DNA from: an uncultured Alphaproteobacteria bacterium
Lineage (GTDB): Bacteria > Pseudomonadota > Alphaproteobacteria > Rhizobiales > Xanthobacteraceae
Direction: 5' to 3'
Assembly (NCBI GenBank): GCA_963755895.1
Contig: CAVWMD010000027.1
Span: 240,881 to 304,880 of the forward strand
Length of the DNA stretch: 64,000 nucleotides
Part shown: positions 14,885 through 23,074 of the stretch, piece after piece
How the letters are laid out: every line of letters starts with the position of its first letter
Position numbering within the stretch: the stretch's first letter is position 1
Translations under genes and position numbers: made by a program
The notes under the pieces: model-generated
What the model saw: the letters and a program-made list of their open reading frames with translations, nothing else
Database searches by the model: none
Told to the model about the DNA's origin: nothing

Positions 14885-15655
14885 GCCCCGCTCGCGGGGA
14901 GAGTGAAAGCGCTCTCATTCCAACATCGTCATTGCGAGAAGCGCAGCGACGAAGCAATCCAGTCTTCCTTGGCGCCTCTGGATTGCTTCGTCGCTGCGCT
15001 TCTCGCAATGACGATGCGCCATGCTCCACCCACTACCGTCATACTCCGCGAAGGCGGAGTATCCAGTATGCCGCGAGTTTTCGATTCCATCACGAGCGTC
15101 TCGGAATACTGGATCGTCCACTTCGCGGACGATGACTGCGGAGACGTAGTGTGCGGACGCAAATCCACGATCTCGCGACAGTACTCGCCCGAGTTTTGCA
15201 AATTCATCCGCCCCCAAAAAAATAGAGGGCGCAGCGCGACCCTCAAGAGAGCGCGGGGAAGACCGGGTGCGCGCTGCACCCGCGGTCTCATGTGCAAATG
15301 GAAATAGCAAAACGCACATGAGCATACAGGTTCAGCGGAAGCAGCCCGGCCTTCCCTGCGCAATGGTTTTAACAGCTTATTTCGTGCTCTCCCCGGCGAG
15401 ACCAGAGCTTGTTTGTCACCGTCGCCCCCAGGAAGCGTGAGCTTCTTAGGAACTTGACACCAGCCATCGGGGCGTCAGGACCACACGACTTTGCCGTCCG
15501 CGTCACGCGCTGTTCGTCAAAAGCGCATCGGGGTCCATCGCTCCCCGCCCCAACGTCAGTGACGATGGCCAACGCCCCCTCTCACCGGGACGGGATGGCG
15601 AGGAATAAGTAGGTGAGTTGGGTCAAGAGTCAAGGATAATTTCTGAAAATCAGAA
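14885..15655. repeat. Copy B of the mosaic repeat (core about 15150..15655, inverted relative to 805..1290) plus extra REP modules
   Basis: See copy A. The segment 14885-15150 adds further modules, including atccagtat...atactggat and the 35 bp hairpin listed separately. Confidence 0.85.
14928..15012. repeat. Perfect 35 bp inverted repeat (hairpin) REP-like element
   Basis: gtcattgcgagaagcgcagcgacgaagcaatccag (14928-14962) and its exact reverse complement (14978-15012) are separated by a 15 nt loop. A half-copy occurs at about 1328-1358. Confidence 0.95.
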
Positions 15656-15683: not shown

Positions 15684-16865
15684 TCACGTGCTTCGGTCGC
15701 TTTCCAGGCGTTGCGGTCCAATACCCGCCACATCGCGATCGCCGCGATTGAGCTTTGTCACGTCGCCACCAGCCCAGGCCAGCACTTTCGGGTCCATCAC
15801 CCGGAACCAGAGCGGTGGAAGCGTCGCCAACCCGAACATCCCGGTATAGCCGTTCGGCAGCCGCGGGATGTCGTCGAAGTCGCGCAGCGACTGGTAGGGT
15901 CGCATCGGGTTGGCGTGATGGTCGGAATGGCGCTGCAGGTGGAGCGTCATCAGGTTCGATACGATGTGATTGGTGTTCCAGGAATGGCGTGGTTCGACCG
16001 ACTGGTAGCGCCCGTTCGGCAGCTTCTCGCGCAACAGCCCGTAGTGCTCGACATAATTGGCCTGGGTGAGCGCATACCAACCGAGGAAGTGATGGGCGAG
16101 AATGAACGGTGCTACCTTCCAGCCGAACACGGCAATCAGCGCGACGGCCACGACGAGCGTCAGTGCGAAGCCCTGCAGGATCTCATTGTCGATCGACCAG
16201 GCACCCTTGCCGCGCTTCGCCAACCGCTCGGCTTCATTGCGCCAGCCGCGCTTGAACGCCCCCGGTAGTTCACGCCCGGCGAAGGCGTAGATCAATTCGC
16301 CGAAGCGCGCGCTCGCCGGATCCTCCGGTGTCGCCACCCAGGTGTGATGGCCGCGGTTGTGCTCGATGCGAAAATGCGCGTAGCCCACCGCATTGTTGGC
16401 GAGCATGCCGAAAAAGCTGTTGAGCCGATCCGGCTTGTGGCCGAGTTCGTGCCCGATCAGAAGCGCGCCGCCGTCGATCGTGCCCACGCCGAGCAGAAGC
16501 GCCACGTAGGACCACCACGGCAGGTCCTGCGTGCCGATGAACGCAATCAGGGCGATGTAGTTCAACCATGGAAACACCACCGTGATGCGTGCAAGCCGCA
16601 GGTAGTAGGGGTCGGACTCCATTGCCGCGACCACCTCGGCCGGCGGATTATGCGTGTCTTCGCCGATCACGGCATCGAGCAGCGGGATGAGACCGAAGAT
16701 GAAGACAAAGGGAATGAGCGTCACGGCCGGGTTCGCTGTCCTGATGTAGAGCCAATAGGACAACAGCGGGATCAGCGGCGGAATGAAGGAGAGCATCCAC
16801 AAATAGCGCTTGCCGTCGCGATAGGTGATCGTCTCGCCGGCAGCGGTCTTGCCTGTGAAAATCAT
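15684..16865 (-). CDS. alkB: alkane 1-monooxygenase (integral-membrane di-iron hydroxylase)
   Basis: All AlkB His boxes are present: HELGHK, EHNRGHH, NYVEHYG, LQRHSDHHA. The ATG at 16865 follows a ggagga RBS. Confidence 0.92.
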   Translation of the reverse strand: MIFTGKTAAGETITYRDGKRYLWMLSFIPPLIPLLSYWLYIRTANPAVTLIPFVFIFGLIPLLDAVIGEDTHNPPAEVVAAMESDPYYLRLARITVVFPWLNYIALIAFIGTQDLPWWSYVALLLGVGTIDGGALLIGHELGHKPDRLNSFFGMLANNAVGYAHFRIEHNRGHHTWVATPEDPASARFGELIYAFAGRELPGAFKRGWRNEAERLAKRGKGAWSIDNEILQGFALTLVVAVALIAVFGWKVAPFILAHHFLGWYALTQANYVEHYGLLREKLPNGRYQSVEPRHSWNTNHIVSNLMTLHLQRHSDHHANPMRPYQSLRDFDDIPRLPNGYTGMFGLATLPPLWFRVMDPKVLAWAGGDVTKLNRGDRDVAGIGPQRLESDRST

Positions 16866-16994
16866 CGCGTTCCTCCAGCTTTTCCGGATCGGCGTGTTGC
16901 CGACTGTTTGGATGGAGGATGCCGCGGCACCGGCCTGCGTTGCCAGTTCCCGACAGGCCAAAATTGTGGCATTTTGCGCCAGCCTCAGTTCGCA

Positions 16995-18026
16995 ATGGAG
17001 ATCGCCGCCGCAATGCCTCGCGGACCGCAAAAACTAGACGCTCTGCAGGCACCGGTGTCCGCGGTCTACGCGCGGGCGCTGCTACGGCATTTCGGCAAGA
17101 GCGACGGCGAGCGCGATGAATTGCTGAAAGGCACGGGCATTCGGCAGCAAACCCTGGGCGAGCCGGGCGCCGACATGCCAGTGTCCGCGCTGGTGGCGCT
17201 GGCCACCAATATCACCCGCCGGCACGGCGAGTTATGGCCGCTGTCCGCGGCGACGGTCTGGTCGACCTCGCTGCAGGGTGCGCTCGATGTGGCGGCGCGG
17301 ACCGCACCAACAATCGAGGATGCGCTGAAGGCCGGCGCCCGCTTCGGGTCGATCCGTGCGCCATTCATCTGCAATCGGCTGCACGCGACCAGCAGGTCGA
17401 TCCAGATGGAGATCCTTCCCGCTATCCCCATGGACGACACGCTGTGGCGCGCAGTCGCGCTGGCTGTCGGTCTCAACGTACACGCGCTGTATTCGCAGCT
17501 GCTTGAGGATGCGATCGGACGCGCGACCCTCGCCTTTCCCTGGTCGCCGCCTGCGGGCGTCGCTCGGGTGTTGCCGCACTTTTCCTGCGCGCTGCAATTC
17601 GACGCCGCAGCTTTCATGTTCGACGTACCGAAAGACCTTTGCGCGCTCGCCTCGCCATTCGCGGACCTTCAACTGCACACCAAGGCGATCGAAGCGTTGG
17701 AAGCGGCCGGCGCGCGTCGATCGGACACAGCAGCGCTGGCACAGATTGTCGAAAGCCTGATCGCAGCACGCCTGCCACAACGCCTCAGCGAAGAAGACGC
17801 GGCGCGCCTGATCGGGACCTCGCGGCGCACCCTGGTGCGGCGCCTCGCCGAGGGCGGTCACGCCTTCCGGCCGCTGCTCGATGGCGTGCTGCGCGAGCGT
17901 GCCCGCACGATGCTTGCAGCCGGCGCGCAATCGCGAGACGGGATGGCGGCTATGCTCGGATACACCGACGCCACCAGTTTCAGCCGTGCCTGTCGGCGCT
18001 GGTTCGGCAGCGGGAGCGTGCGGTGA
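16995..18026 (+). CDS. AraC family transcriptional regulator (divergent from alkB)
   Basis: C-terminal HTH_AraC: LSEEDAARLIGTSRRTLVRRLAEGG...MLGYTDATSFSRACRRWFG. The start is ATG 16995 or 17013; the upstream part of the track ORF is antisense to alkB. Confidence 0.85.
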   Translation: MEIAAAMPRGPQKLDALQAPVSAVYARALLRHFGKSDGERDELLKGTGIRQQTLGEPGADMPVSALVALATNITRRHGELWPLSAATVWSTSLQGALDVAARTAPTIEDALKAGARFGSIRAPFICNRLHATSRSIQMEILPAIPMDDTLWRAVALAVGLNVHALYSQLLEDAIGRATLAFPWSPPAGVARVLPHFSCALQFDAAAFMFDVPKDLCALASPFADLQLHTKAIEALEAAGARRSDTAALAQIVESLIAARLPQRLSEEDAARLIGTSRRTLVRRLAEGGHAFRPLLDGVLRERARTMLAAGAQSRDGMAAMLGYTDATSFSRACRRWFGSGSVR

Positions 18027-18489
18027 ACAGATGCGCGCGACACCCGAAGCGGCGTGTGTCAAATTAAATCGCCTCAATAAATTCGATTTTGCGCGCGTCG
18101 CTACTTTGCCAGAGAAAGGATGACAGCCGCGCAATTTGGGCAACTCGCCGGATTTTCTTAAGGACTAGCAGCATCGAGTCTGGCGTCCACTGAGGCTAGC
18201 GCCGAAGTGATAGCGGCCCTTCAATCAAACGGTGTTACGGAGCAGGCCATCAGTATGGCCCAGCAATTTTACGAGCAAGTAGCAAATGCAAATCCACCGT
18301 GCCCGCGACGTCGCCTTGCTCCAAACACGTGCTGCTTCTTGCGAAATGTGAAGATCGCTCTCGCACCCACAGCAGCGAGAGAGATTTTGGGGTCGAACAT
18401 CCTCTTGGCTGACTTCCCCGACGGCGCCGCCTCTGGCTCGACCAATTTCACCTACAATTTTCACCTAACTTGAGCGCGCCGGGCCGCTA

Positions 18490-18526
18490 TATGGAATTAC
18501 TAAGTTGGCGTTATGGAATTGCTAAG
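18490..18526 (+). promoter_or_regulatory. Direct repeat tatggaatt(a/g)ctaag x2, candidate operator
   Basis: Two 15-mers (18490-18504 and 18512-18526) match 14/15 with 22 bp centre-to-centre spacing, about 145 bp upstream of the small ORF at 18671. Function is inferred only. Confidence 0.3.
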
Positions 18527-18670
18527 GCCAGGCCACCAAAGTTGAAGCGGCTCCCGTTAGTTGGGATAGACTAGAATTGCCGCCCCGGGTGTGCTACGCC
18601 AAGGCGGCGAGGAATATTGCGCATCCAGAATGACCGAACCCTTTGAATGGTGCGCGAGGGAGGATTTGAA

Positions 18671-18856
18671 ATGTCGCTTCGAGCCATCATCGTGAGTGCC
18701 GCCTGCGTTATTGTCGGCATCGCATTTTTCGCGACCGTCTCAACCGAGGCCTTTGCCCGCGATGCCGGGCTGCTTCGCCTTGACCACGGCCGCCACCATC
18801 ATCAACCCGCCCATCATGGCGGACGGGTGCACCGTGGGCACCCGGTCGCGCGCTAG
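18671..18856 (+). CDS. small exported His-rich peptide (hypothetical)
   Basis: The ATG follows a strong RBS (gagggagga). Signal peptide MSLRAIIVSAACVIVGIAFFATVSTEAFA, then a 32 aa mature part with 9 His (LDHGRHHHQPAHHGGRVHRGHP). Confidence 0.5.
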   Translation: MSLRAIIVSAACVIVGIAFFATVSTEAFARDAGLLRLDHGRHHHQPAHHGGRVHRGHPVAR

Positions 18857-19296
18857 AGCCTGCGTCCGCCCGGGCCCCGGCATTTGTCCGAGGCTTTTGT
18901 TGGCGGCCAGAACATGCGCCCGCGGATGCTGTTGCACGCAATCTGTATTTAACAGCGGGTGATGCCGCCTATCGGATGGTGTGGACGGCTCGTCCACCGG
19001 CATGTGCGTGCCATGGATGGGGGCTATTAAAGCTCCTACAATTCAAAATCTCCAGATTGTTGGGTCCTACGTTTTCGCGGAGGTGAATTCTCGTTTCTTT
19101 TAAGGGGCGTCGACCGGCGTTTCCGACATCGGCTTCCTTTGCCGGGAGCTTGCCTTGCCAAGTGAAACATCTTCGGAGGCCCCGCCTCACGAGCGAAAAA
19201 TCAGAAGCCCGCAGCGCCGACCGCAAGACAAGTGCGTGGCGGCCAAAATAGCGGAGAACATTCGAACACAGGCAAGGCGAAGAAGGGGTAATTCCA

Positions 19297-20913
19297 ATGG
19301 AAACGAAAATCGTGGAACGTCGAACGGTTCTTAAGGGTGGCGCGGCCGCTTTTGGGATGCTGGGCAGTGGCGCATCGGCTTCAATGGTAACTGGCATAGA
19401 GCAGGCACGCGCCGATACGCCTCCGTCATCACTTCCGGATCAAATTCAACGCGCGTTTCAGCGTTTTCGTGAAACCATTCCAGCCAACTTCGATCACGAG
19501 TACGTCGAAAAGGTCGTCAGACCGTTTTTCCTTACGAGTTTTTACGAAGGTGAACGTCCGATGCTGCCGCTGATCGACGTCACCTTTAGCAAGGAAAACG
19601 CACTGCCTTACGACCTTTGGGGACTCATTACCCGCGACTGGCGACCGACCCCTGAAGACGGCGTGACGGTCTTTTTGCAGGGCCTTGAGAAACGCGGTCC
19701 CCATAATCTCCGTAAAAGGATCTACTTCTCGGGGGTGACGCCTGACCTTTACAAACCAATGTACAGCGCGAAAGTCGTCGCGTTCTTCGACAAACTCATG
19801 GACCAGAAGTTCGCCAACAAGCCGTTCATGCGGCATTACCTCGATTATTATTTCGACCTTTACTGGGACCTTCATCTTGGAGTGGCGGCAGACGCTATTC
19901 CTTTCGAGGTGCGTCAGATCGGCGAAGCCTTCAACACGGTTCTTGCATACAGGAACCCTCTGCTGCCCGTCACGTATGATAACTACATGATAGTTCGTGA
20001 ACGACTCGACTTTCTGAAATCATGGATCGATGATCGACTGACCGACATTGAAAGTGGCAAAACCGAAGCTCCGGAAAAGACGATAGCCTGGTATTGGCTG
20101 AAGAACGCCGGCGACGGCCGCCACTTTGCGAAGAAGGACGTCGTGTTCGAGTGTTTCCACAATTTCGTCGCGCTCAGCCAATGGGGCAACTCGATCTTCG
20201 GAATTATGTCGCGCTTGTCCGAAGACGGCGGCGATCCGGCGGTTCGAGCATCGTTTCAGAAGACGATGAGCGGAAATTTCGATGACGCCAACGGTGCTGC
20301 GTTCTCCCCGCTGGAATTGTTCGTCATGGAACTATTCCGCGTGATCTCTCCAAACGGCGGGAGCATCTCGGCTATCCACGATGCGAGAACAAGCGCCTAT
20401 GGCGGATCTCCGCAGCAAAAGTTTGGCCTTCCGATGGAGCGCCATAGCTACATCAGCACGCCCCACACGAGTACCAGCCTGGACCCAGTCCACTGGAAGG
20501 ATCCGAATGCTTTTGATCCGTCCAGATATCTTGGCGTTCCTACCAGCGCGCAGATTACGGAAGATAAGTGCCGGCAGATCGGGCTTGCGCGATGCCCATT
20601 TGAGACCACAAATTTCGAGGTCACGGATGGGCGCACGGCAAGCATCACGAATAGCGGTTTTGGGACGGTTTTCGGTGTTGTCGATGGGAAGAGCCTTCCG
20701 GTTTGTGACTATGCGGGCTTCGCGCCATTCGGCTTCGGATACCGGCGGTGTCCGGGCGAACAGTTGACGATTCAGGTCTTCGAAGATTTTCTCCGCAAGG
20801 TTTGGCGAGACAAGATCGTCTTCCGCAAACTCAATCTCGCCAATGCAGGCCAGGTTCCGATCGGGCCGACGGCTGTCATCGAAGACGATCTCGGATTCAC
20901 CAGGTCGGCCTGA
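19297..20913 (+). CDS. cytochrome P450-fold protein with twin-arginine (Tat) signal peptide, atypical I-helix
   Basis: N-terminus METKIVERRTVLKGGAAAFGMLGSGASA has an RR-x-[FV]-L-K Tat motif. It also has EXXR (ELFR), FDPSRY (a PERF-like motif) and the Cys-ligand loop FGFGYRRCPGEQL (Cys485, tgt at 20749). The I-helix region ECFHNFVALSQWGNSIFG has no AGx[DE]T motif. GC is about 52% by eye, against about 64% in the flanks. Confidence 0.8.
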   Translation: METKIVERRTVLKGGAAAFGMLGSGASASMVTGIEQARADTPPSSLPDQIQRAFQRFRETIPANFDHEYVEKVVRPFFLTSFYEGERPMLPLIDVTFSKENALPYDLWGLITRDWRPTPEDGVTVFLQGLEKRGPHNLRKRIYFSGVTPDLYKPMYSAKVVAFFDKLMDQKFANKPFMRHYLDYYFDLYWDLHLGVAADAIPFEVRQIGEAFNTVLAYRNPLLPVTYDNYMIVRERLDFLKSWIDDRLTDIESGKTEAPEKTIAWYWLKNAGDGRHFAKKDVVFECFHNFVALSQWGNSIFGIMSRLSEDGGDPAVRASFQKTMSGNFDDANGAAFSPLELFVMELFRVISPNGGSISAIHDARTSAYGGSPQQKFGLPMERHSYISTPHTSTSLDPVHWKDPNAFDPSRYLGVPTSAQITEDKCRQIGLARCPFETTNFEVTDGRTASITNSGFGTVFGVVDGKSLPVCDYAGFAPFGFGYRRCPGEQLTIQVFEDFLRKVWRDKIVFRKLNLANAGQVPIGPTAVIEDDLGFTRSA

Positions 20914-21194
20914 TTTATCAGCGCAGCACTTTGATCATGAGAGAGCGCCATGTTCAGCCCGTGGCCCTACGGTCAGGCATCATTGACGGTCTGGTTGGCG
21001 ATAGCGGGAAGATCAGGGGTTTCGCGTCCCCAGGTTCTGGAATAATGAAGGGCTGCGTGACGCCGGCGGTATCGCGGTATCCTGGAGTCGATACCTAACG
21101 ATACTTGCCGCTTGCGCAGACCCTGTCCCGGCACGCCGCTGCGCGGTGCGCCACCCTCTCCCACAAGGGGAGAGGGATAGCGAAGTGAAACCTG

Positions 21195-21896
21195 ATGTCC
21201 ATTGGCAATTCCATCCGCGCGCAAATTCCGCCTATTCATCGCGAAGGCTATCCGTTTATCGGCGGCTTTGCGCTGGCGAGCCTCATTCTGTTCTGGCTAT
21301 GGACGCCGCTCGGCTGGATCGGCACGGTGCTGACGATCTGGTGCGCGCTGTTCTTTCGCGATCCGGTCCGGGTGACGCCGGTGCGGGAAGGCATCGTGGT
21401 GGCGCCGGCCGATGGCCGCGTCTCGATGATCGGGCAGGTGGTGCCGCCGGCCGAACTCGGTCTCGGCGACCGGCCGCTGCCGCGGATCTCGATCTTCATG
21501 AGCGTGTTCAACTGCCATGTGAACCGCAGTCCGGTGGCCGGGCGGATCGACCGGATCGCCTATCGGCCGGGCGCCTTCATCAACGCCGAACTCGACAAGG
21601 CGAGCGAAGACAATGAGCGCAATTCGCTGGTGATCTCGACGCCGAACAACGGCCGCATCGGCGTGATCCAGATCGCCGGACTGGTGGCGCGGCGGATCGT
21701 GTCGTTCGTTCGCGAAGGCCAGCAGCTCGGCGCCGGCGAGCGGTTCGGCCTGATCCGGTTCGGTTCGCGGCTCGACGTGTATCTGCCGGAGGGAACCACG
21801 GCGCTGGTCTCGGAAGGCCAGACCGCGGTGGCCGGCGAGACGATCCTGGCCGATTTCAGGCTCAGCGATGCGGGGCGAATCTACCGGGCGGATTAA
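21195..21896 (+). CDS. psd: phosphatidylserine decarboxylase proenzyme
   Basis: 233 aa. [13 protein letters not shown]-terminus and the [14 protein letters not shown] self-cleavage (G-S) region of the short alphaproteobacterial Psd type. Confidence 0.9.
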
Positions 21897-22248
21897 CCAA
21901 CCCAGTAGCCGATATCTTCAATGTCTGCGACATAGAATAGCTTTCGATCCAAGGCGCTCGCGATTATTGATAACCACGAGAGAAATCCATCGATTGCAAC
22001 GCGATACAGACGAGGATCTTCACTTATTTCTTCAACAGTTCAATCCGCTCGAAGCGCTTGAGCGAATATGCGTCGGTCGTGCTGAATAAGTCGCGGATTG
22101 TCCGGCATATACGGACGAAGCGTTTCGGGAAGCGCGAGCGGACCTCCGAACCAGTCAAGGCATCTGCCCGCGAACACAAGCTCCTGATTCGTGTTAAAAT
22201 CCTACACGTTCTGATATCGAGCGCGCTCTAAACACAGGGGAGACTACG

Positions 22249-22527
22249 ATGAAGAACCTGGTGGCTGCTGCGGCATTTGCAGCCTTTACCTTTTCGCCCG
22301 CTTCCGCAAAGACGGTGGCGTGCACAGGCGAAGATTTCGCCAGGATGATGACCCGAATGGCTACTATGCCTTACGGTCACAAAAGGATGGGCATGACGAG
22401 GGAGATGGCAGCGGTCAATACTGGCCTGAGCAACGGCGATCTTCGTGGGGCTTGCAAACACTACGTCATCGCCCAGAGAATTCAAAACAACGAGCGTGAT
22501 CCCTTCGCGGACTTGCTTCTTGAATGA
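22249..22527 (+). CDS. small secreted hypothetical protein
   Basis: RBS gggga, then signal peptide MKNLVAAAAFAAFTFSPASA. Met-rich mature region with 2 Cys. Lies in a low-GC insert. Confidence 0.45.
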   Translation: MKNLVAAAAFAAFTFSPASAKTVACTGEDFARMMTRMATMPYGHKRMGMTREMAAVNTGLSNGDLRGACKHYVIAQRIQNNERDPFADLLLE

Positions 22528-22615
22528 CGGACAGATCGGGTATCTGTCTCAAGACGCCCACTACATTGTTGGTGGCGATTTCATGCGGTGCCATCTTGCC
22601 AATGATCGGAGAGGC

Positions 22616-22873
22616 TTATGTTGCGAGCGTCTTGATCCGTTGGTCATGGTGGTGATGACCTTCCCATCCATCTTTGTGTTGAGTGATATAGTCGAGCGCT
22701 ACGTCCTCGAATGTGTCCGCGGCCGTTGTGATCGCGGTAGCGGTTTTGATCGTGGCGTTTCGTTCATCAAGTCCGGCCTCTATTTTCTTTCGGAATTCCG
22801 CCGTCTTCCATTCGAGTGCCTTCAATTTCGCGGCGTCGATTGTTCGTAGGTCTCGATCGTCACCAGACGACAC
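22616..22873 (-). pseudogene. N-terminal remnant of a P4-like tyrosine integrase
   Basis: 85 aa: ...TFEDVALDYITQHKDGWEGHHHHDQRIKTL resembles the integrase N-terminal SAM-like region (TFxEVAxxWxxxHxxGWxNxKHxxQWxxTL). No catalytic domain follows. Confidence 0.55.
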
Positions 22874-23074
22874 TTGCCGGTTGTGGTTGAATAGCGGAGC
22901 GCCCAGAAGGCTTTCCCGCTCTAAACTTGTGGATAATCAAAAAGGTAGCGGCCTAATTGGCATCACGCAGGAGCGCGTGACGCCGTGATTTTAGGGATTA
23001 ACCATCGCCATGGTCGACGTCGCCGGCTTGCCGCCACAATGGCGGGCAGGCCCAGCGTTTGCTATATACCGCTG

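Follow-up and report, generated by a model that had tools for sequence, protein, structure and literature searches.

A mobile family of remote P450-fold proteins with a conserved twin-arginine signal, a candidate for peroxide-dependent periplasmic chemistry

Introduction

The usual view of bacterial cytochrome P450s is that they work in the cytoplasm and rely on electron-transfer partners linked to NAD(P)H. Here we describe a gene at positions 19297 to 20913 of a 64,000-nucleotide stretch of contig CAVWMD010000027.1 (the window), from an uncultured member of the Xanthobacteraceae, whose 538-residue product joins a P450 fold to a twin-arginine translocation (Tat) signal. A first interpretation of this DNA, made from its letters and open reading frames (ORFs) and called here the sequence-only reading, had described an exported P450-fold protein with an I-helix unlike that of a monooxygenase. 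We propose that the protein is a redox-partner-independent, peroxide-dependent periplasmic haem-thiolate enzyme acting on a hydrophobic compound from outside the cell, a reading to which we would give a little better than an even chance of being right.

Among described enzymes, those of the CYP152 family (P450 BS-beta, SP-alpha, OleT) work without a redox partner, are driven by H2O2 and, like the protein described here, lack the conserved Thr; they are cytoplasmic, and an Arg-Pro pair in the I-helix anchors the fatty-acid carboxylate in P450 BS-beta and OleT. The DyP-type proteins EfeB/YcdB are haem b peroxidases that fold around their cofactor before Tat carries them out of the cytoplasm, and that use peroxide once in the periplasm. 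Enzymes of the CYP74 clan work without O2 and without a redox partner; a different sequence takes the place of the oxygen-binding motif in their I-helix, and their hallmark is a nine-residue insertion in the haem-binding loop (PMC10813956). In the SphA/SphBC system of Pseudomonas aeruginosa, a COG4313 channel and the Tat-secreted periplasmic oxidoreductase SphC detoxify sphingosine (PMC11398299, PMC4493636), SphC being a predicted FMN-linked oxidoreductase and SphB a cytochrome c (PMC11398299). COG4313 proteins are 12-stranded outer-membrane barrels implicated in the uptake of hydrophobic molecules, with TcpY for trichlorophenol and SphA for sphingosine as examples (PMC4493636). In the open-access literature we found engineered export only, and no natural P450 or haem-thiolate protein described as periplasmic or Tat-exported; this is not proof of absence.

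A remote member of the P450 superfamily

The gene and the motifs that identify its product are as follows:

19297..20913, + strand: gene for a deeply divergent P450-fold, predicted haem-thiolate protein bearing a Tat signal, 538 aa, ATG start
19283..19288, + strand: Shine-Dalgarno-like AAGGGG, 8 nt before the ATG, read from the sequence
20329..20340, + strand: K-helix ExxR motif, ELFR, residues 345-348; E345 and R348 invariant in the family alignment
20512..20529, + strand: PERF-like motif FDPSRY, residues 406-411; F406 and P408 invariant, R410 at least 90% conserved
20728..20766, + strand: Cys-ligand loop FGFGYRRCPGEQL, residues 478-490, canonical FxxGxRxCxG spacing
20749-20751, + strand: codon of Cys485, 53 residues from the C-terminus

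The sequence-only reading had assigned the protein to the P450s by the ExxR, PERF-like and Cys-loop motifs, all of which we find at the positions it gave, and had placed the Cys about 54 residues from the C-terminus, one residue from the measured value. It had also proposed a search with Pfam PF00067, which proved significant though marginal at 25.4 bits against a gathering cut-off of 22.8, mainly by way of the Cys loop. A Protein Data Bank (PDB) search with the single sequence returned no P450 and only chance matches to botulinum toxin, and a family profile was needed. The profile, built from 21 diverse members, found P450s only among the 60 listed matches (best E 6.7e-8), with alignments that span the K-helix, the PERF region and the Cys loop; the FDPSRY stretch aligns with the PERF region of solved P450s, and its Arg is predicted from sequence to complete the E-R-R triad with ExxR. 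The Cys loop is laid out as F478-G-F-G481-Y-R483-R-C485-P-G487, in which G481, Y482, R483, R484, C485 and G487, together with E488, are invariant in the family alignment and P486 is not. The loop reads FGFSYRRCPGE, not FGFGYRRCPGE, in six orthologs outside the Xanthobacteraceae group (L032, L037, L045, L046, L048, L071), and Ser takes the place of the canonical Gly four residues before the Cys in the Yersinia, Serratia, Paraburkholderia, Verrucomicrobiota and Acidobacteriota copies.

An AlphaFold2 (AF2) model computed on the family alignment (pLDDT 84.2, pTM 0.83; residues 1-44 disordered) and compared by Foldseek, as the sequence-only reading had suggested, has a P450 fold to which no solved structure is close. 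Of 1001 PDB matches at E<=0.001, 50 were listed, every one a P450 chain at probability 1.0, with TM-scores of 0.45-0.61 and identities of 10-16%; the best of them, CYP46A1, CYP51, CYP152 and P450 BM3, are about equally distant. The protein thus agrees with the P450 superfamily on every testable criterion and belongs to it as a very remote member, sharing the fold, the FxxGxRxCxG loop, the ExxR and PERF motifs and a long kinked I-helix. It differs from the superfamily in carrying a Tat signal, in lacking the acid-alcohol pair and in having conserved blocks of its own, among them RKRIYFSxVTPDLY and DLYWDLHLG, while the N-terminal half of its I-helix aligns with no solved P450. It comes from a large uncharacterised family far from all solved P450s. 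A thiolate-ligated haem with an Fe(II)-CO band at 450 nm would be expected of such a protein.

A conserved twin-arginine signal

The N-terminus of the product carries the elements of a Tat signal peptide:

19297..19413, + strand: twin-arginine signal peptide region, with ERRTVLK at residues 7-13
19318-19323, + strand: RR pair, residues 8-9, read from the sequence
within 19297..19413, + strand: h-region GGAAAFGMLGSGASASMV, mildly hydrophobic (mean hydropathy 1.07)
within 19297..19413, + strand: candidate AxA cleavage sites, ASA at residues 26-28 and ARA at residues 37-39

The signal had been proposed from the window copy, and the family carries it nearly throughout the clade to which this copy belongs. 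The pattern [M]-E-R-R-x-[FV]-L-[KTA] is present in 80 of 81 sequences (the window and 80 genomic homologs), and seven of the eight orthologs tested pass the curated model TIGR01409 at 17.6-26.3 bits. Orthologs that start downstream of the RR pair would have spoken against export; many homolog ORFs begin right at MERR. Past the RR motif the homologs differ in both the length and the sequence of the next stretch, which would suit a cleaved signal and a linker, and the NCBIfam model for a Tat-substrate deferrochelatase/peroxidase gives a weak N-terminal match to the signal of one ortholog. The RR signal is conserved across phyla and is kept in metagenome-locus clades down to ~54% identity. More distant family members (30-55% identity) lack it, so that export would be confined to a single clade of a larger family that otherwise looks cytoplasmic. 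The destination indicated by the signal is the periplasm, presumably reached through TatABC.

An I-helix without the oxygen-activation motif

The I-helix motif was placed by alignment, the AF2 model and a hidden Markov model (HMM) anchor:

20149..20202, + strand: I-helix motif ECFHNFVALSQWGNSIFG, residues 285-302

The absence of AGx[DE]T from the I-helix, noticed in the first interpretation, extends to the whole molecule: no [AG]Gx[DE][TS] motif occurs anywhere in the 538-aa protein, and the acid-alcohol pair is absent from every aligned family member. The helix has a conserved pattern of its own, in which E285 is invariant, A292, S294, Q295 and W296 are at least 90% conserved and S-Q-W-G is near-invariant in the family; H288-N289 is common but not universal, being S-D in P0125 and P0140. 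In the AF2 model the helix comprises residues 279-293 and 295-307 with a break at 294, and HMM alignments to solved P450s start only past that break. The I-helix segment alone has no PDB match at E<=10. Ungapped extension of the anchor (window S299-IFGIMSRL against CYP76 T-IEWIMEEL) lets A-G-x-D-T fall on V291-A-L-S294-Q295, by which S294-Q295 would occupy the canonical acid-alcohol position.

A COG4313 channel as the recurrent partner

Clustering of neighbouring genes gave one recurrent partner, a signal-peptide protein of ~310 aa with a PF13557 (Phenol_MetA_deg) domain that matches the solved COG4313 channel Pput2725 (4RL8) at E 1.7e-6. In 31 of the 80 genome loci an intact copy of its gene is found no more than 2.5 kb from the P450 gene, upstream or downstream of it and on the same or the opposite strand; barrel-bearing loci come from Alpha-, Beta- and Gammaproteobacteria (including Yersinia and Paraburkholderia), Verrucomicrobiota and Acidobacteriota. 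Ten further genome loci hold partial barrel matches, two of them cut by contig ends and others frameshifted or truncated (L029, L076, L054, L011, L026, L065), and the remaining 39 are without any barrel match. A barrel ORF adjoins the P450 gene in 23 metagenome loci as well. On Serratia fonticola pR28_180 and on a plasmid of Paraburkholderia ginsengisoli, the P450 and barrel genes travel as a pair bracketed by the insertion sequence (IS) elements IS91/IS21 and IS1182/IS30/IS6.

The window retains a trace of this partner upstream of the P450 gene:

19047..19195, + strand: COG4313 (Phenol_MetA_deg) channel pseudogene remnant, ~150 bp, found by tblastn and profile HMM

Searches by tblastn from many partner proteins converge on this interval. 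It covers profile positions ~99-141 of 313, in order across a frameshift with stop codons between, positions ~99-129 lying in one frame and 127-141, with the NIFGGPA motif, in the next. Similar upstream barrel fragments are found in the closest metagenomic relatives of the window (L130, L151, L154). A channel gene next to that of a putative Tat-exported redox enzyme is a feature of the gene family, of which the window has the remnant only, and the ancestral unit is a two-gene cassette of Tat-P450 and COG4313 channel. The closest architectural precedent is SphA-SphBC, in which a COG4313 channel is likewise paired with a Tat-exported, cofactor-bearing oxidoreductase. The enzyme here differs from that precedent in being a P450-fold, predicted haem-thiolate protein without a cytochrome c partner, and the likeness is one of architecture, not of homology.

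A conserved adjacent redox-partner system would have argued for ordinary monooxygenase activity, as the sequence-only reading had pointed out. The IS-bounded cassettes of the two plasmids hold no ferredoxin or reductase gene, and no redox-partner gene appears among the recurrent neighbours in 173 loci, although a partner could still be encoded elsewhere in the genome. The protein might in that case be a conventional O2-dependent monooxygenase with an unlinked partner, which stays in the cytoplasm or membrane with its signal uncleaved or takes its electrons from some donor in the periplasm. The genes for the redox partners of many bacterial P450s lie elsewhere, the Cys loop and the E-R-R triad here are fully canonical, and the window copy has a Tat signal that scores below threshold. 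Such an enzyme is nevertheless hard to reconcile with an RR signal that is kept from phylum to phylum and, in orthologs, scores above the cut-off of the curated model, with the absence of the acid-alcohol pair from every member, and with IS-bounded two-gene cassettes that move between phyla without a partner gene. Known periplasmic carriers, moreover, have potentials far too high for P450 reduction. We consider a conventional monooxygenase distinctly unlikely.

Relation to CYP152, CYP74 and exported haem peroxidases

The Cys loop had been likened to that of the CYP152 enzymes. The local similarity is real, the RCPGE stretch being common to both, and CYP152K6 has the highest target-normalised TM-score among the matches listed (0.61). 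Family membership is rejected, since no Arg-Pro occurs in the I-helix (residues 279-307) and the NCBIfam CYP152 model NF053744 gives 10.7 bits against a cut-off of 600, through the Cys loop only; the protein is also ~120 residues longer than CYP152. With the Tat-exported EfeB/YcdB the parallel would be that of an exported haem b protein. The folds are unrelated, and the axial ligand is His in EfeB/YcdB and, by the Cys loop, predicted to be Cys here.

A second proposed likeness, to the hydroperoxide-rearranging CYP74 enzymes, did not hold at the level of membership. The protein resembles CYP74 (allene oxide synthase and hydroperoxide lyase, including Methylobacterium members) and CYP8A/CYP5 in having the I-helix oxygen motif replaced. 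The nine-residue insertion in the haem loop is absent, the FxxGxRxCxG spacing being canonical; neither CYP74 nor CYP8A is found among the 60 listed profile matches or the top 50 Foldseek matches, and the I-helix segment has no PDB match. With no preferential similarity in sequence or structure and no linked lipoxygenase, membership of the CYP74 clan is rejected. Failure of both membership tests is still compatible with a protein that works like those enzymes.

It is in this functional sense that a hydroperoxide or endoperoxide isomerase or lyase has to be weighed, one that rearranges lipid peroxides in the periplasm in the manner of CYP74 or CYP8A/CYP5. The O-O bond of the substrate would be the oxidant, and an amide, Q295 or N289/N298, would take the role of the catalytic Asn of CYP74. 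Such a reaction needs no O2, NAD(P)H or partner and would suit the periplasm, and it would fit a protein that has no acid-alcohol pair and conserved amide residues at or near that position. Lipids are plausible substrates insofar as one COG4313 channel takes up sphingosine (PMC4493636) and, in ~20 of the 80 loci, a gene for a patatin-like lipase is at most a few kb away. The lipase, however, belongs to a shared patatin-GntP-AI-2E block of related Alphaproteobacteria, for which synteny is the likelier reason, and no lipoxygenase or dioxygenase gene accompanies the Tat clade. Together with the missing insertion (the criterion of PMC10813956), the lack of CYP74 or CYP8A structures among the listed matches and the unmatched I-helix segment, this makes an isomerase or lyase unlikely, if not negligible, and H2O2-driven turnover is somewhat more likely than a CYP74-like rearrangement. 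The patatin-like lipase, GntP permease, AI-2E transporter and metallophosphoesterase that recur near the gene were all rejected as functional partners, since in related Alphaproteobacteria they invariably occur together as one and the same block of the chromosome and reflect synteny, not function.

Distribution, mobility and selection

The P450 gene and the channel remnant lie together in a segment that stands out from the rest of the window:

18030..21190, no strand: segment of atypical composition bounded by the AraC-type gene and psd, with the channel remnant and the P450 gene inside it (GC profile and GC3)

GC in this segment is mostly 52-58%, with a 61% stretch at ~18500-19250, against 62-68% in the flanks; an earlier estimate by eye (~52% against ~64%) was close to these values. 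The P450 gene itself has a GC of 54.5% and a GC3 of 63.5%, in a window of 62.6% GC whose flanking ABC, alkB, psd, pssA, RraA-like and SDR genes have a GC3 of 79-84%. Horizontal acquisition, proposed from composition, is borne out further by the gene's relatives. The window aligns with the DNA of 16 close relatives (84-91% identity) over the gene only, except that L001 shares some upstream sequence as well; each close relative therefore carries the gene in a different context, and the plasmid copies are flanked by IS elements. At the borders of the island itself, no tRNA or transposase was found in the window and there are no convincing flanking repeats. The AlkB-type gene (15684-17030, - strand) and the AraC-type gene (ending at 18026, + strand) that had been noted next to the P450 gene are both present upstream. 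A functional link to them was rejected, and their proximity is incidental, because homology to the close relatives stops at the gene borders and no close relative shares the neighbourhood.

A search of a genome collection found relatives in 426 species. The closest are metagenome-assembled genomes (MAGs) of Xanthobacteraceae at 95% identity, and other carriers include Yersinia frederiksenii, Y. alsatica, Serratia, Sodalis, Paraburkholderia ginsengisoli, Acetobacteraceae, Verrucomicrobiota and Acidobacteriota, with 65-78% identity between phyla. The ratio of nonsynonymous to synonymous substitution rates (dN/dS) against 14 relatives is 0.045-0.087, which indicates that the gene is maintained by strong purifying selection. 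This bears on the standing of the window copy, which could be taken for a decaying relic whose partner channel has already become a pseudogene, the upstream region having only the ~150-bp barrel remnant with its frameshift and stop codons. We regard this as very improbable: the ORF is intact, full length and has every family-invariant residue, dN/dS is low, and many relatives (39 of 80) keep the P450 gene without a channel.

Distant relatives without a Tat signal

The more distant family members examined have no adjacent ferredoxin or reductase, and several are linked to other oxidative enzymes. A gene for a BBE/FAD_binding_4 oxidase lies 23 nt past P0124 in the same orientation and is operonic with it, and P0129 and P0288 also adjoin a BBE-type FAD oxidase, a class that makes H2O2. 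P0140/P0292 overlap a downstream gene whose product passes the di-haem cytochrome c peroxidase model (425 against 150 bits) and has a RoxA-like domain. A PF12902 ferritin-like domain of the VioB/StaD type is linked to the family twice independently: it is fused to the N-terminus of the 800-aa P0133, whose gene (L081 3167-5569, and L082) is flanked by IS elements, and it is present in a neighbour in L102 (5090-8431), a near-full-length VioB/StaD-like protein of 1113 aa (E 3.8e-284). These partners suggest peroxide-linked oxidative chemistry, possibly on aromatic compounds, and lend indirect support to the use of a peroxide proposed for the Tat clade. Beside three lineages there is a large Guanylate_cyc+AAA_16 protein (L092, L095 and L096 for P0140/P0292; L086-L089 for P0125; L097 for P0288), a neighbourhood that may represent a signalling-linked oxidative module. 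No BBE oxidase, RoxA-like or guanylate-cyclase partner was found in the Tat-clade loci or the window, save one distant cyclase match in L054.

The cyclase neighbours give some weight to a different role, that of a non-oxidising periplasmic haem-thiolate binder or sensor (for NO, CO, sulfide or a lipid), or of a scavenger of organic peroxides without a defined second substrate. Very high conservation, at 65-78% identity between phyla, with no pathway genes attached would also fit. In the Tat clade, however, no sensor output domain is fused or linked to the protein, and both the pairing with a hydrophobic-uptake channel and the oxidases and VioB-like enzymes of the relatives suggest turnover of a small molecule. 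A binder, sensor or scavenger is accordingly very unlikely.

Some members have unusual arrangements. In L168 and L169 (5207-8428), a 1073-aa ORF has a P450 part without a Tat signal that is continuous with an upstream DUF3237-containing region; its motifs are altered (ECLHN, SQWAN, PGEK), and it is either a fusion or the onset of decay. In L174 (5173-6734), a deep-branching Tat-clade member at 54% identity lies 63 nt downstream of a gene for an MsrP-like molybdopterin oxidoreductase, which has its own Tat signal; a cytochrome b subunit is encoded there as well. This arrangement suggests a link to the repair of periplasmic oxidative damage.

Proposed function

As a peroxide-dependent periplasmic enzyme, the protein would fold and take up haem b in the cytoplasm and be exported in the folded state by Tat, with the signal peptide probably cleaved in the periplasm. 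It would act there on a hydrophobic compound from outside the cell, which in the ancestral cassette would enter through the dedicated COG4313 channel; in the window, where the channel has decayed, the enzyme would act alone. Its oxidant would be either H2O2, with turnover of the peroxygenase or peroxidase type, or a peroxide group that is part of the substrate. Peroxide appears the most probable oxidant because the periplasm has no NAD(P)H, no partner gene was found and the acid-alcohol pair is missing. The role would most likely be detoxification or first-step conversion of an environmental hydrophobic compound, lipid-like or aromatic, parallel to that of SphA/SphBC.

Several points weigh against this proposal. 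The Tat signal of the window copy (RRTVLK) is under the curated cut-offs (Pfam, 11.6 against 22.7; TIGR01409, 13.1 against 16.7), although, judged by its sequence, it is a homologous copy of the conserved feature and real despite the low score. The acid-alcohol mapping depends on the ungapped extension of a remote alignment and on a predicted helix break, and the AF2 model carries no haem. Many ordinary bacterial P450s are also without adjacent redox partners. About half of the Tat-clade loci have no channel within 2.5 kb; the enzyme can therefore do without the channel, which becomes a weaker guide to the substrate. Oxidases and peroxidases, finally, are partners in non-Tat relatives (40-55% identity), whose chemistry the Tat clade may not share.

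Other features of the window

The promoter scan returned 0 promoter-like sites, and the terminator scan found nothing downstream of the P450 gene. Within the atypical segment, a 61-aa ORF (18671-18856, + strand) is preceded by a strong ribosome-binding site, GGGAGG. Its product has a Sec-type signal peptide and a tail rich in His, HGRHHHQPAHHGGRVHRGHP, and could be a small peptide that binds metal in the periplasm; L001 and L058 have homologs ~475 nt and ~5 kb upstream of the P450 gene, respectively. A second low-GC stretch (21750-23000, 52-55%) between psd and pssA may be a further insertion. A 92-aa ORF there (22249-22527) has an N-terminus that resembles a signal peptide and matches no Pfam model.

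A perfect 39-nt inverted repeat with a 15-nt loop (14924-15016) lies immediately past the downstream end of the ABC-transporter gene, and ~450 bp around it (15168-15624) has counterparts of 70-80% identity close to the P450 gene of L001, L005 and L006. The repeat region resembles a palindromic element dispersed among this group of bacteria.

Implications

Annotation pipelines currently miss this family. Its members are publicly named 'hypothetical protein' or 'cytochrome P450', most metagenomic copies being 'hypothetical protein', while the Prokaryotic Genome Annotation Pipeline (PGAP) names the plasmid orthologs by their signal, as 'twin-arginine translocation signal domain-containing protein'. 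Judged by sequence, these proteins appear to form a new and widespread P450 clan with an unusual location, a distal-pocket motif of its own and a channel partner. More tentatively, and with slightly less than even confidence, we suggest that they are the first natural family of periplasmic Tat-exported P450s, a separate mobile clan present in at least 426 species of several phyla and on plasmids in Serratia and Paraburkholderia, with an E-x-x-H-N ... S-Q-W-G pocket motif that would support partner-free, peroxide-driven oxidation of hydrophobic compounds from outside the cell. If this is true, a partner-free P450 in a substrate-accessible compartment would be attractive for biocatalysis. An exported, haem-loaded, partner-free and mobile family would also extend where and how P450 chemistry operates in bacteria, and would hint that soil and host-associated bacteria handle hydrophobic compounds from the environment by a periplasmic route that has gone unrecognised.

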